Sequence record: MZ501090
Origin: Escherichia phage KarlJaspers
Direction: 5' to 3' (one strand)
DNA: 51,474 nucleotides
The translations under genes were made by a program, and so were the position numbers. The notes under the pieces are model-generated. The model worked only from the letters and a program-made list of their open reading frames with translations. It was not told where the DNA came from and did no database searches. This document shows positions 23,945-26,894 of this stretch, piece after piece; positions within the stretch are counted from its first letter, which is position 1; every line of letters begins with the position of its first letter.

Positions 23945-23967
23945 AAAGGGGCATTACGCCCCTTTTT
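23945..23967 (+). terminator. rho-independent terminator between convergent genes
   Basis: GGGGC-attac-GCCCC hairpin followed by TTTTT. Confidence 0.6.
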
Positions 23968-24211
23968 CACCCTCAGCCATCCCAAGAACAGCAATCACCT
24001 TAACAGCAATTCGCTTTGCAAGTTCAGTTTGATGAGCGTTCAGCTTTCCAGTGGTCATTATTGACAACATTCCGCTCATACTTCCAAGCCCGTTAAAATC
24101 TGACATTGCCGATTTCATGATTGATATTGGTGAGTGACCCTCATCAGCTATTGTGTGCGCTCTCTCTGACAGGTCTTTAACTACCTGAGCAATTCCTTCA
24201 CTTTTCGTCAT
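23954..24211 (-). CDS. hypothetical protein
   Basis: 85 aa ORF, last gene of leftward 4-gene operon. Confidence 0.4.
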   Translation of the reverse strand: MTKSEGIAQVVKDLSERAHTIADEGHSPISIMKSAMSDFNGLGSMSGMLSIMTTGKLNAHQTELAKRIAVKVIAVLGMAEGEKGA

Positions 24212-24689
24212 TTGCTTTTCCTTCAGGAGTTGATTGCTGTTCTGGCATTACAGGCCACGGGCTAATTGATTCCCTTTCTGCTACTGGCTTTTCAGGTTCA
24301 ATTCCTAAAAACTTTCCTACAAACTCACCAACAAAATTTGAGCTATCGCTTACATAAACATGCATCCTGTCTAGATCTGCAACAGTAACGCTATTTGGTG
24401 CGATCATGATCCTCTGTTGGTGAAAACCGATATACATCACATTAGCCGGACGCTCAAGAGTCCCCATATTTGGCGCAATTACGCCCATTATCCAACAATA
24501 ATGAATGTTGCCATCAAGCGGCTCACATCCAGCGTTAAGCCAGTTTACTTTCTGGTGAGGAAACGCCATTGATGAATCAGTAGCATCACGCCGTAACGAC
24601 CATTTAACTCCGCCAATCTCAATGATTTGTTTCGGCCTCATCCCGTTGAATTGAGTCACGCCAGCGCCATTTTGATTAATGTTTTGCAT
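24198..24689 (-). CDS. hypothetical protein
   Basis: 163 aa ORF overlapping neighbours by a few codons. Confidence 0.45.
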   Translation of the reverse strand: MQNINQNGAGVTQFNGMRPKQIIEIGGVKWSLRRDATDSSMAFPHQKVNWLNAGCEPLDGNIHYCWIMGVIAPNMGTLERPANVMYIGFHQQRIMIAPNSVTVADLDRMHVYVSDSSNFVGEFVGKFLGIEPEKPVAERESISPWPVMPEQQSTPEGKANDEK

Positions 24690-24703
24690 ATCGGTTAACC
24701 TTT

Positions 24704-25027
24704 TTACATTGATTTCATTTTACGCAATGCGCAGATACAAGCGGCAGCAAGATCGGTTAATTCTTTCTCAATGCCATGATGCGAGCCGTCTGCCTTTTCG
24801 GTCATTAGCTCTTTGTATTCCATTTCTACAATCGACATTAAGCCGCCTGGCTTGTCAATGTGCGCGTCCCAGGTTTTAGGATAGTGCTTAGTTCTTTCCA
24901 TAACACTTCCCATAACTGAATCATGTTTGCTATCTCGCTCATAATCATCATCATGATCATCACTCCCGATTGAAACTCGCGGCAAATGAATGCGCGGTAT
25001 TTTATAGCCAGCATAACGGATCTTCAT
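24704..25027 (-). CDS. MazG-like nucleotide pyrophosphohydrolase (tentative)
   Basis: EMEYKELMTE and EKELTDLAAA segments resemble paired EExxE/ExxxD helices of MazG-type NTP-PPases; start uncertain. Confidence 0.3.
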   Translation of the reverse strand: MKIRYAGYKIPRIHLPRVSIGSDDHDDDYERDSKHDSVMGSVMERTKHYPKTWDAHIDKPGGLMSIVEMEYKELMTEKADGSHHGIEKELTDLAAACICALRKMKSM

Positions 25028-25076
25028 TATCTCACCCTCTTGATGAAAAGCGCCCCGAAAGGCGCTTGATTTATTA

Positions 25077-25778
25077 TCAGCCGCAACAGCCAGTAGGCGG
25101 AGTCTGAGGAGTAGGCAACTTGAAGTTTACCAATTGCTCTACCTGGTTGATTTTGCAATTCAGTGCGGCGGTCTGGTTTGCCTGAGATAGAGCAAAACGC
25201 GCTTCCTGCAACTGAGCTTTCATATCGCAAATCAAAACAGCCTGAGAATCAGCAAACTGTTGACGAATCAGATCTCGCGTTGCGTTACCTTGTCGCTCAA
25301 TGTTCAGGTTAGTCTCGCAGCAACATCTTTCGGCTGCAATCTGCGCCTGATAGGAACGCTCAAGAGCATTAACATCAGCAGCATTAATCGCAGCAACTGT
25401 CTGGTTAGTACCGCTAACAATCGCGGTATTCAGTCCGGCAAAACCTTGCACCGATGCAAGCAGGCTTTGCGTATTCTGGCTGGTAATGCCGTTAAATGTT
25501 GATGCGGCGGAGCGCTCAACGGTAAGGTTTGTGGAGTTTTGGCCTTGCAGAGTTTGCAGCCCCAGGTTGTTTACGCCTGTCTGGATGTTATTAATACCAT
25601 CAAGAACAGCGTTAGCACCGACAGCAACAGCAGCACCATCACCACCATAACCACCACGACCATTAAAGCCATTACCAAACCAAGACCCAATCAGGCCACC
25701 AACAGCACCGCCAAGACCAGCCGCGCCAGCTTCGCCACCAAAACCACCACCAGTAGGGAGTAAAGTCATATCTGACAT
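25077..25778 (-). CDS. glycine-rich protein with glycine-zipper N-terminus and Cys-rich C-terminus (unknown function)
   Basis: 233 aa; GGGFGGEAGAAGLGGAVGGLIGSWFG; Asn/Gln/Ser/Thr-rich middle; CCC and terminal GCCG. Confidence 0.5.
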   Translation of the reverse strand: MSDMTLLPTGGGFGGEAGAAGLGGAVGGLIGSWFGNGFNGRGGYGGDGAAVAVGANAVLDGINNIQTGVNNLGLQTLQGQNSTNLTVERSAASTFNGITSQNTQSLLASVQGFAGLNTAIVSGTNQTVAAINAADVNALERSYQAQIAAERCCCETNLNIERQGNATRDLIRQQFADSQAVLICDMKAQLQEARFALSQANQTAALNCKINQVEQLVNFKLPTPQTPPTGCCG

Positions 25779-25947: not shown

Positions 25948-26625
25948 TTAAATGTTGTTATTTTTTATTGATTCAATTTGGCTTTTTAATTGCTCTATTT
26001 CTTCTTTCATCCGTTTCACATGATGAATTAGCGGAACAACCAAACGCTCATACATAACGCCTTCTGCAACCATGCCATTGCTTGAGGCGATTTCTGGATC
26101 ATCACCTTCTTGTAATGGCCTCCAGTGAACGTATTCAGACGCAATCTCTCCAACTTCTTCGGCGATCAGTCCATACCAACCCCAATCTTTTCTGTCATTC
26201 TCGCAAATCGACCGATACCAGACAGGACGCATGTCAAACATTCGATCTGCATATTCATCCATAACAGTTTCAACAGATCTTTTGTATCTTTCGGAAGACG
26301 TTGAACGAAGAACGCTTGACACTGCGGCATCTGGATTGAGATACAAGTTTGCGCCAGCGGTTGTTGTTCCAAGTCTAAAAAAGTAAACGGCCTCTTGTGC
26401 TGTTAATGGGTAAAAGTTTCCGCTATGTGTTCCGCCCTCTAATTCATTTGAAAGCTCGCTTTTCTTCATGTACGTCTTTAACTTGTTGTCAACGTCAGAG
26501 CTTGATGGCTTTGTGTTAACTTCTTGCTGCAACGTGGAAACATTGCCTTGCAACGTGGAAACATTGCCTTTTAAAGCAGTTATATCAGCCGGAATATTTG
26601 TTACGGTAGCCATGATTAAGCCCAC
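25948..26625 (-). CDS. tail fibre protein with C-terminal intramolecular chaperone-like domain (putative)
   Basis: 225 aa; tandem NVSTLQG repeat; C-terminal WGWYGLIAEEVGEI...ERLVVPLIHHVK resembles S74 chaperone domains. Confidence 0.5.
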   Translation of the reverse strand: MGLIMATVTNIPADITALKGNVSTLQGNVSTLQQEVNTKPSSSDVDNKLKTYMKKSELSNELEGGTHSGNFYPLTAQEAVYFFRLGTTTAGANLYLNPDAAVSSVLRSTSSERYKRSVETVMDEYADRMFDMRPVWYRSICENDRKDWGWYGLIAEEVGEIASEYVHWRPLQEGDDPEIASSNGMVAEGVMYERLVVPLIHHVKRMKEEIEQLKSQIESIKNNNI

Positions 26626-26894
26626 TCCCTAAGTTTTTGATCCGTCACAACGGTTCTGCTATTGAATAATTTCGCATCGTAATTATCATTAATGATGCGA
26701 GCGTTCACAAAATAACCATCATTTTTCTCTACAATTTCCTCTCCTTCTTCCGTTACAGATACAACAGTGTAAGTGTTCCCGATAACGTCGAGAAGAATTG
26801 CATCCTGAATGGATTCGTTTTCGTTCCATTCAATTTCTTCAAGAAAGGCAGAAAACTCTGCCTTGTCTGCAAATTTCAGTGTTAAATCTCTCAT
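26616..26894 (-). CDS. hypothetical protein (tail-fibre associated)
   Basis: 92 aa ORF coupled between two tail-fibre genes. Confidence 0.4.
   Translation of the reverse strand: MRDLTLKFADKAEFSAFLEEIEWNENESIQDAILLDVIGNTYTVVSVTEEGEEIVEKNDGYFVNARIINDNYDAKLFNSRTVVTDQKLREWA

Follow-up and report, generated by a model that had tools for sequence, protein, structure and literature searches.

Which role is played by the four leftward genes that lie at the junction of ssb and the lateral-tail-fibre gene of Escherichia phage KarlJaspers (sequence record MZ501090)? The whole stretch of DNA analysed here (51,474 nucleotides, hereafter the window) is a Hanrivervirus genome (Drexlerviridae, Tempevirinae). 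Indeed, the 2-kb region of the four genes is 94-98% identical to many Hanriverviruses (including phiE31-2, grams, pSf-1 and the BASEL phage JakobBernoulli, Bas07), and the window is thus the genome of a T1-like virulent coliphage; phiE31-2 and other Hanriverviruses are 97.7% identical to it. A first-pass annotation, made from the sequence alone, had described the locus as an operon headed by an unusual glycine-zipper, Cys-rich protein that it could not assign to a known phage protein family and that could be a membrane-active or injected protein, a lysis regulator or an anti-defence factor. We designated the genes g1 to g4. Our tentative answer is that they form a membrane-tethered module for host manipulation, exclusion or anti-defence, which would be neither a virion part nor a canonical lysis component.

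All four minus-strand open reading frames (ORFs) of this description are present. The first one, g1 (25778..25077, minus strand), encodes a 233-amino-acid (aa) protein with a Gly-rich N-terminus, a long predicted helix, an invariant CCC motif and a Pro/Cys tail. It is followed after 49 nucleotides (nt) by g2 (25027..24704, minus strand; 107 aa), the product of which combines a variable His/Asp-rich N-terminus with a conserved C-terminal two-helix domain carrying a MazG-like signature, and, after a further 14 nt, by g3 (24689..24198, minus strand; 163 aa) with a predicted alpha/beta core and a disordered acidic tail. The first 14 nt of g4 (24211..23954, minus strand; 85 aa) are shared with the end of g3, which suggests translational coupling. 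Each of the four proteins matches over its full length a PHROG of unknown function (E from 1e-42 to 1e-124; phrog_9288 for g1, E = 2.5e-124; phrog_7239 for g4). Such E-values mark g1-g4 as genuine, conserved genes; they are not ORFs that arose by chance.

Distribution and decay of the cassette

The four genes are found in the same order in Seuratvirus KurtStettler, in Yersinia phage PY100 (ORF29-32; its close relatives bear myovirus 'vB_YenM' names) and in Edwardsiella phage eiAU (gp08-11), with pairwise identities of 30-73%. In a viral contig from the gut (L090), a g1 homologue with 33% identity is followed by g2- and g3-like genes (hidden Markov model E = 4e-18 and 2e-27, respectively) and by a fourth gene for a 72-aa protein, to which the g4 profile gave no match. 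As the same four genes occur in the same order in five unrelated lineages, they behave as a unit. The place of this unit differs from phage to phage. In PY100 it is located between small early-type genes and dam/ssb, and in L090 it adjoins lysis and regulatory genes, not fibre genes. In phage T1, nothing is present at the junction, and the ssb terminator directly abuts the tail-fibre gene. Nonagvirus 9g has no cassette, and its relatives JenK1 and JenP1 carry one. Remnants can be found as well: T5-like phages possess g1 fragments only, and in Salmonella phage 9NA a shortened g3, g4 and two small ORFs remain between terL and the portal gene (L132 4870-5851). The terL/portal interval is an unusual place for an insertion.

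Among the Hanriverviruses, a cassette of at least 94% identity stands beside wholly different lateral-tail-fibre genes (encoding 669, 92 and 225 aa in the window, 455 aa in grams and 741 aa in Bas07). As the cassette is constant beside these differing alleles, g1 does not co-vary with the fibre. Furthermore, Bas07 (MZ501079.1) carries a CAA->TAA change that turns codon 78 of g1 into an ochre stop and splits the gene into two annotated ones (L002 5175-5879). This nonsense mutant was isolated and propagated, so growth on laboratory E. coli does not require g1. Note that the downstream piece of the Bas07 gene is labelled 'putative sugar-binding protein', a label without support, as the family-library scans of g1 gave no sugar-binding match. 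In KurtStettler (MZ501091.1; L004 3981-5513), g1 without its first 16 residues is fused in frame to an S74-domain protein, resulting in a 510-aa product. Either a natural deletion of the intergenic terminator/promoter region or an assembly artefact accounts for this fusion. It is also the sole basis of the label 'putative lateral tail fiber chaperone' in this genome, as the Pfam match to S74 is at residues 208-259, outside of the g1 part; we do not follow this label.

Judged by this distribution, the cassette is a mobile, non-essential accessory module. Its mobility and decay argue for an accessory module rather than for a core part of the virion. Nor is it the lysis cassette, which lies elsewhere: in phage grams (97.5% identical), holin, endolysin, Rz-like spanin and Cor are annotated at other places, the Rz-like spanin adjoining the endolysin. 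No observation speaks in particular for an injected protein or a lysis regulator, two roles that the first-pass annotation had also considered.

More than 130 deposited phage genomes already contain genes of the cassette, recorded as hypothetical proteins. The region also matches 19 GenBank records named 'Campylobacter phage' (host Campylobacter jejuni), two of which are among the matches listed (MG065669.1 and MG065675.1) and are ~97% identical to the window phage. These records look like contamination or mislabelling.

The g1 protein and its relatives

The g1 protein contains 32 Gly residues (27 of them within residues 10-48), 22 Asn, 21 Gln and 18 Thr. Cys residues are at positions 152-154, 184, 208, 231 and 232, and the protein ends with GCCG, in agreement with the composition and the CCC and GCCG motifs described at first. 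The ~50 residues of GxxxG repeats reported for its N-terminus were overstated. There are eight GxxxG matches in g1; such matches, however, are expected by chance in so Gly-rich a stretch, and only one zipper is conserved, G23-x3-G27-x3-G31-x3-G35 (GGAVGGLIGSWFG; codons 25674..25712, minus strand). It is marked by conservation, by alignment with transmembrane (TM)-type homologues (see below) and by hydropathy: among 57 homologues, G27 and G31 never vary, G23 and G35 are kept in at least 90%, and hydrophobic residues stand in between. Thus g1 carries conserved (G/A/S)xxxG repeats on one helix face, one of several marks of glycine-zipper membrane proteins. The three cysteines Cys152-Cys153-Cys154 (codons 25317..25325, minus strand) are, together with the initiator Met, the sole invariant residues across the superfamily sample. 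The C-terminal tail PTPQTPPTGCCG (codons 25080..25115, minus strand) has a Pro/Thr motif that is conserved in the enterobacterial group, and terminal Cys residues are present in most members, not in all. The N-terminal motif MSDMTL(L/I)P is conserved as well. In an AlphaFold2 model (based on a 57-sequence alignment; mean predicted local distance difference test score, pLDDT, 62; predicted template modelling score, pTM, 0.24), residues 1-55 are disordered, residues 56-218 form one continuous helix, and a short unstructured tail follows. The pLDDT is 74-86 over much of residues 110-210, with a dip at ~150-160. A heptad or hendecad periodicity of the helix showed up only weakly (3.5-3.7) and in parts of it, which is not decisive.

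To collect the g1 family, a profile was run against 1.84 billion representative proteins (50% identity representatives). The family has 121 members at E <= 1e-3, 47 of them at E <= 1e-10; most are 190-290 aa long and match over their full length. Many of the representatives come from phages and prophages binned with Clostridia and Negativicutes. In a diverse sample of the family, the Arg of an 'ATR' motif is nearly invariant, QGF(A/S)G(L/V)N repeats recur upstream of CCC, and LCDAK and SQxAQT motifs follow downstream. Many distant relatives possess a true hydrophobic helix (e.g. WIWVILLFAIF) exactly at the position of the zipper in the window, and distant members end in a Pro-rich segment and a CGCGC-type tail, an echo of the end of g1. 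The segment aligned with the zipper is strongly hydrophobic (Kyte-Doolittle mean at least 1.8; range 1.8-2.4) in 31 of the 129 family members. In these 31 members, the tail on the N-terminal side is short (~27 residues) with a net charge of -2.3, and Lys/Arg outnumber Asp/Glu in the flank on the C-terminal side. According to the positive-inside rule, this suggests, from small numbers, that in the distant relatives the N-terminus is outside and the rod in the cytoplasm. A cytoplasmic rod agrees with the many cysteines and with partner proteins that have no export signals.

For one TM-type member (P0302), IMG/VR contains 261 relatives, most of them from samples of the human gut. A genome scan revealed 38 loci, which belong to Oscillospiraceae (among them the isolate Flintibacter muris), Lachnospiraceae, other Clostridia, Negativicutes (Phascolarctobacterium, Megasphaera) and various metagenome-assembled genomes (MAGs); apart from the isolate, many of the host assignments are derived from MAG bins and are weak. 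The neighbours of the g1-like gene in such loci are conserved, yet different from those in the window: a small helix-turn-helix (HTH)/sigma-region-4-like gene, genes for a ~157-aa Gln-rich and a ~74-aa Met/Gln-rich protein, then the g1-like gene, a gene for a ~140-aa protein and one for a DUF7841 protein. They form a second conserved module around the TM-type homologues (loci L009-L131; e.g. L099 2099-4612 and L095 3863-6627). In prophages this module follows the lysis genes, adjoins the integrase or host DNA and has its own HTH gene; this prophage-end location is a typical cargo position. No correspondence was found between g2-g4 and the neighbours of the gut-phage g1-like genes in profile-profile comparisons (hhalign probabilities all <=2.1%), and we reject it. 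With partners unrelated to g2-g4 in the gut phages, g1 is the shared core, combined with lineage-specific partners.

The ~140-aa neighbour directly follows the g1-like gene in 66 of 80 IMG/VR loci. It matches the C-terminal C1q-like head of F-BclA (PDB 9h38, E = 2e-8) and BclA (PDB 3twi, E = 1e-3). F-BclA is the tip protein of a Bacillus spore appendage and has a trimeric C1q-like head (PMC12357932). The gut-phage proteins differ from BclA and F-BclA in having neither a collagen stalk nor an exosporium leader, and the likeness belongs to this neighbour and not to the cassette of the window, where no such gene is present.

No significant match of g1 was obtained in Pfam, NCBIfam, PADLOC or the PDB, the latter by sequence as well as by fold; the protein is thus as unassignable as it had first appeared. 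A Foldseek search of the PDB with the g1 model gave zero matches. The best PDB sequence matches were the helical region of Mce/MlaD and the fusion-peptide region of influenza HA2 (E ~0.04-0.07, non-significant), and this likeness (E about 0.04) was dismissed as compositional or due to chance. A Pfam scan of 34 diverse family members yielded scattered chance matches only, e.g. to Hemagglutinin for one member (E = 0.012), or to Gly-zipper_Omp for one of the 34 (E = 0.043); the window g1 itself has no Pfam match. Pfam bacteriocin families were matched neither by g1 nor by the 34 relatives. With PHROGs of unknown function and the PDB results above, g1 could not be identified as a structural protein, and the homology to a characterised structural protein that would have spoken against the first description was not found, in line with the dispensability of g1 in the laboratory phage Bas07. 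A holin was rejected because g1 comprises 233 aa with a predicted 160-residue soluble helix and because the holin of grams adjoins the endolysin ~8.5 kb from the cassette. A tail-fibre chaperone was rejected as well, g1 having no similarity to S74 or Tfa and showing no co-variation with the fibre allele; the only feature shared with tail-fibre chaperones and S74 proteins is the place directly downstream of the lateral-tail-fibre genes.

The architecture of g1 can nevertheless be compared with that of several known proteins. Gly-zipper_Omp, Gly-zipper_YMGG and Rick_17kDa_Anti likewise have a G-x3-G-x3-G-x3-G face with hydrophobic residues in between. However, these Pfam families are short outer-membrane or lipoprotein domains, whereas the zipper of g1 heads a 160-residue helix. 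The likeness to the phiX174 pilot protein H and to influenza HA2 (HA2 chains being the top non-significant PDB matches, with g1 residues ~13-89) is architectural only, i.e., an N-terminal Gly/Ala-rich segment is followed by a long Gln/Asn-rich helix. Neither H nor HA2 possesses the CCC motif or the Pro/Cys tail, and g1 is dispensable and occurs in tailed phages that have a tape-measure protein. Spanins (lambda Rz/Rz1, T1 gp11) combine a membrane-anchored N-terminus, a helical rod long enough to span a periplasm, conserved cysteines and a Pro-rich C-terminal part, and g1, with its putative membrane anchor, would be alike in this; in contrast to them, it has no lipobox and is encoded outside of the lysis cassette. 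Moreover, spanins would be expected in phages of diderm hosts only, whereas the g1 family is also present in loci binned with monoderm Clostridia, including the Flintibacter muris isolate.

Partner proteins and expression of the cassette

The C-terminal ~60 residues of g2, with two predicted helices, are its conserved part. E70, E73 and E89 are the same in all of 35 homologues, and D92 in at least 90% of them. The resulting motif (E70-x2-E73, a 15-residue gap, E89-x2-D92) is the ExxE...ExxD metal-binding signature of the MazG-type all-alpha nucleoside triphosphate pyrophosphohydrolases. Weak matches to PRA-PH were obtained for 7 of the 35 homologues (best E = 4.4e-4) and to MazG for 3 (best E = 3.3e-3); a weak PDB match is the structural-genomics protein 2p06. 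We consider g2 probably MazG-like, with a likeness in motif only and a putative activity. It shares the signature on two helices with MazG and PRA-PH (HisE), whereas its domain is shorter than a full MazG unit and its variable His/Asp-rich or poly-His segment is atypical for MazG. This N-terminal half of g2 is hypervariable, with a poly-His or poly-Asp tract in several homologues (e.g. HHHHHYHHGHH). The poly-His tracts of g2 and the conserved Cys/His of g1 and g3 hint at a metal-binding theme in the cassette.

For g3, an alpha/beta core (residues ~15-130) is confidently predicted, with many conserved His, Cys, Asp and Arg residues and a disordered acidic tail; no match to the predicted fold was found, and a match to TdcF (PDB, E = 0.22) was dismissed as chance. 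The searches of Pfam and PDB gave no informative match for g4. Taken together, the profile searches proposed earlier were run on all four proteins and assigned no function to any of them (Pfam, PHROGs, NCBIfam, PADLOC), and PDB sequence searches with single sequences and profiles of g1-g4 returned nothing significant. The structure predictions gave a helix for g1 and an alpha/beta core for g3, and no fold match. No protein of the four matched PADLOC at E <= 1, where the models cover defence systems and not anti-defence proteins. No signal peptide or lipobox is visible in the sequences of g1-g4. No characterised family (Pfam, PHROGs, NCBIfam, PADLOC, PDB by sequence, fold libraries) fits g1, g3 or g4. 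The kind of element lies outside every known kind tested; the instance itself has already been deposited, and we do not claim to have demonstrated a new mechanism. Some homologues bear labels in GenBank, namely 'TerL' and 'matrix protein' (g3) and 'transcriptional regulator' (g4), and the family-library scans support none of them. The label 'TerL' probably spread from 9NA-like genomes, where the shortened g3 follows terL.

Hairpins delimit the cassette, and the RNA folds bear out the ssb and tail-fibre terminators that had been placed on either side of it. The upstream boundary is an intrinsic terminator (25943-25920, minus strand) after the S74-domain tail-fibre-tip gene, in which a 10-bp stem is followed by a U-run (-18.8 kcal/mol, z = -2.5). 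The downstream boundary is a bidirectional hairpin (23945-23965, both strands) common to ssb (plus strand, followed by U5) and g4 (minus strand), the stop codon of g4 lying in the loop. A third hairpin of the locus had been overlooked. It is GC-rich, followed by UUUU (25066-25049, minus strand; about -12 kcal/mol), and located directly 3' of g1, between g1 and g2; a terminator-like site was also detected there on the opposite strand. A hairpin is present at the matching position after g1 in KurtStettler, eiAU and L090, so that it recurs in four lineages. It likely acts as an attenuator or stabilises the 3' end, so that g1 would exceed g2-g4 in abundance. Furthermore, g1 is preceded by a strong Shine-Dalgarno sequence AAAGAGGAA, and it is from this ribosome-binding site together with the hairpin that we infer an excess of g1 over g2-g4. 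The initial view of the locus as an operon therefore stands as far as the gene order is concerned, which is kept as a unit in five lineages; because of the hairpin after g1, the four genes are probably not expressed equally.

Possible function of the cassette

As a module for host manipulation, exclusion or anti-defence, the cassette could function as follows. The g1 protein, made in excess over g2-g4, would be anchored in the cytoplasmic membrane via its N-terminal glycine-zipper helix, with the N-terminus out and the ~160-residue rod, the CCC motif and the Pro/Cys tail in the cytoplasm. The rod would probably oligomerise, and its cysteines could serve for metal binding in the reducing cytoplasm or for disulfides after lysis. 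The products of g2-g4 would be its cytoplasmic partners, as they have no export signal: g2 would be a small MazG-like nucleotide pyrophosphohydrolase that hydrolyses a nucleotide, g3 possibly an enzyme or a metal-binding protein with a new fold, and g4 a small protein. Such a module would be conditionally useful, e.g. in excluding other phages or in countering host defence.

Several points weigh against this proposal. Neither experiment nor homology links any of the four genes to a function. The zipper of the window g1 is weakly hydrophobic (best 19-residue Kyte-Doolittle mean 0.96) and would not by itself be predictable as a TM helix. Membrane activity, as first suggested, is thus plausible from the alignment of the zipper with a true TM helix in distant homologues and less so from the zipper itself. 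The topology argument hangs on small charge differences in these distant relatives. The g1 model is of low confidence, and a monomer model cannot reveal oligomerisation. The window g2 has no Pfam match at E <= 1, and none of its homologues reaches the Pfam gathering score of PF03819 or PF01503 (e.g. 16.0 bits compared with a cut-off of 21.3). No sigma-70 promoter upstream of g1 passed the scan, the frequency of promoter-like sites in the region being not above that in shuffled sequences. Finally, both the location of the cassette directly after tail-fibre genes in several lineages and the C1q/BclA-head-like gene after the g1-like gene in the Firmicutes-type loci would fit a fibre equally well.

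Such a fibre is the main rival explanation. Here g1 would be a fibre, whisker or decoration that the virion can do without: a trimer of alpha-helical chains would form a rod, its cysteines would become cross-linked after lysis, and g2-g4 would be its assembly factors or minor components. It would then resemble T4 fibritin or Hoc, which are non-essential, and the non-essentiality of g1 is compatible with a decoration protein. In Hanrivervirus, Seuratvirus, eiAU and T5-like phages, the cassette immediately follows the lateral-tail-fibre genes; the ~160-residue helix, the strong translation signals and a hairpin lowering g2-g4 would be the pattern of a structural subunit with its chaperones; and the homologue of the trimeric F-BclA head in the gut-phage loci points in the same direction. 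However, the cassette remains unchanged beside quite different fibre alleles, and its contexts in PY100 (early genes), in L090 (lysis and regulatory genes) and in prophages (cargo position between lysis genes and integrase or host DNA, with an HTH gene of its own) are not those of a fibre gene. Distant members have a true TM helix, a nucleotide-hydrolase-like partner would be odd for a fibre, and neither PDB nor PHROGs revealed similarity to a structural protein. We thus regard a fibre as doubtful, though to be reckoned with. That g1 assists in lysis or in membrane remodelling (as a spanin-like, fusogenic or holin-regulating factor), with the Gly-rich N-terminus acting like a fusion peptide and the rod like a coiled-coil fusion machine, appears unlikely. 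This phage type already has a full holin-endolysin-spanin set, the Bas07 nonsense mutant still plaques, g1 has no signal peptide, the charge bias suggests a cytoplasmic rod, and the monoderm Clostridia with which family loci are binned have no outer membrane to fuse. What could be brought forward in its favour is the spanin-like architecture, the proximity to lysis genes in L090 and many gut-phage loci, and the likeness to the HA2 fusion peptide (PDB, and Pfam Hemagglutinin in one family member), which is non-significant and compositional.

The four genes might also have no joint function and be unrelated ORFans that travel together via a recombination-prone tail-fibre locus. Only g1 is common to the Firmicutes-type modules, where its neighbours are different, and partial cassettes exist (g3 and g4 in 9NA, g1 in T5-like phages). 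We give this explanation little credence, since the order and adjacency of g1-g2-g3 are held at 33-50% g1 identity in five lineages, including the contexts outside fibre loci in PY100 and L090, the g3/g4 overlap suggests translational coupling, and the partial cassettes consist of truncated ORFs that look like products of decay. Hardly any credence can be given to g1 as a released or injected membrane-active toxin (a glycine-zipper bacteriocin or pilot protein) with a small downstream gene for immunity. Microcins and the phiX174 pilot protein H typically have a Gly-rich N-terminus with a glycine zipper, and the MSDMTL(L/I)P motif at the N-terminus of g1 is conserved; but an export signal, a double-glycine leader context and a transporter are missing, no Pfam bacteriocin family is matched, and a protein of 233 aa with a long helix is unlike known microcins. 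In addition, the named organisms among the matches listed in a tblastn search of a phage genome collection with g1 were enterobacterial tailed phages only.

A more far-reaching version of the membrane-module proposal, which we consider rather improbable, sees in g1 the proteobacterial branch of an unrecognised superfamily of phage proteins, which would extend from Proteobacteria to Clostridia, Negativicutes and perhaps further phyla, in phages as well as in prophages. These proteins would be alpha-helical CCC rods, anchored in the host membrane, that self-assemble into a cysteine- or metal-linked structure and thereby remodel or gate this membrane. They would act together with lineage-specific partners: in enterobacterial phages a MazG-like enzyme and two new proteins, in Firmicutes phages a C1q-like head and others. 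If true, this would add a new type of machine at the phage-host interface. T1-like, Seurat-like and related siphophages are therapeutic and model phages (e.g. in the BASEL collection), and about half of their genes are without known function. The cassette is among the few blocks of such genes that clearly form a unit: it is co-inherited, variably inserted, repeatedly lost and dispensable in the laboratory. Such a pattern is usual for genes that make a difference only in certain hosts or under competition (exclusion, anti-defence, host manipulation). The family of g1 extends over phages and prophages of several bacterial phyla; with its function solved, hundreds of phage genomes would gain an annotation, and a membrane-associated phage function of a new kind could come to light. 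The gain would be modest if g1 turned out to be merely a decoration fibre.

Two minor observations concern the surrounding genes. A 92-aa protein encoded between exo and erf is annotated as 'tail length tape measure protein' in a homologue-bearing record, a label that has no profile support. Just upstream of the cassette, the window encodes a 225-aa protein (25948-26625, minus strand) that consists only of an N-terminal coiled coil and a Peptidase_S74 intramolecular-chaperone domain (E = 1.6e-4), and this gene is preceded by a 92-aa ORF (26616-26894, minus strand). In KurtStettler the cassette is likewise preceded by a 92-aa ORF and an S74-domain protein (L004 3693-5513). As both genes are found before the cassette in the two phages, fibre-tip genes and cassette may sometimes be swapped as a single larger block.

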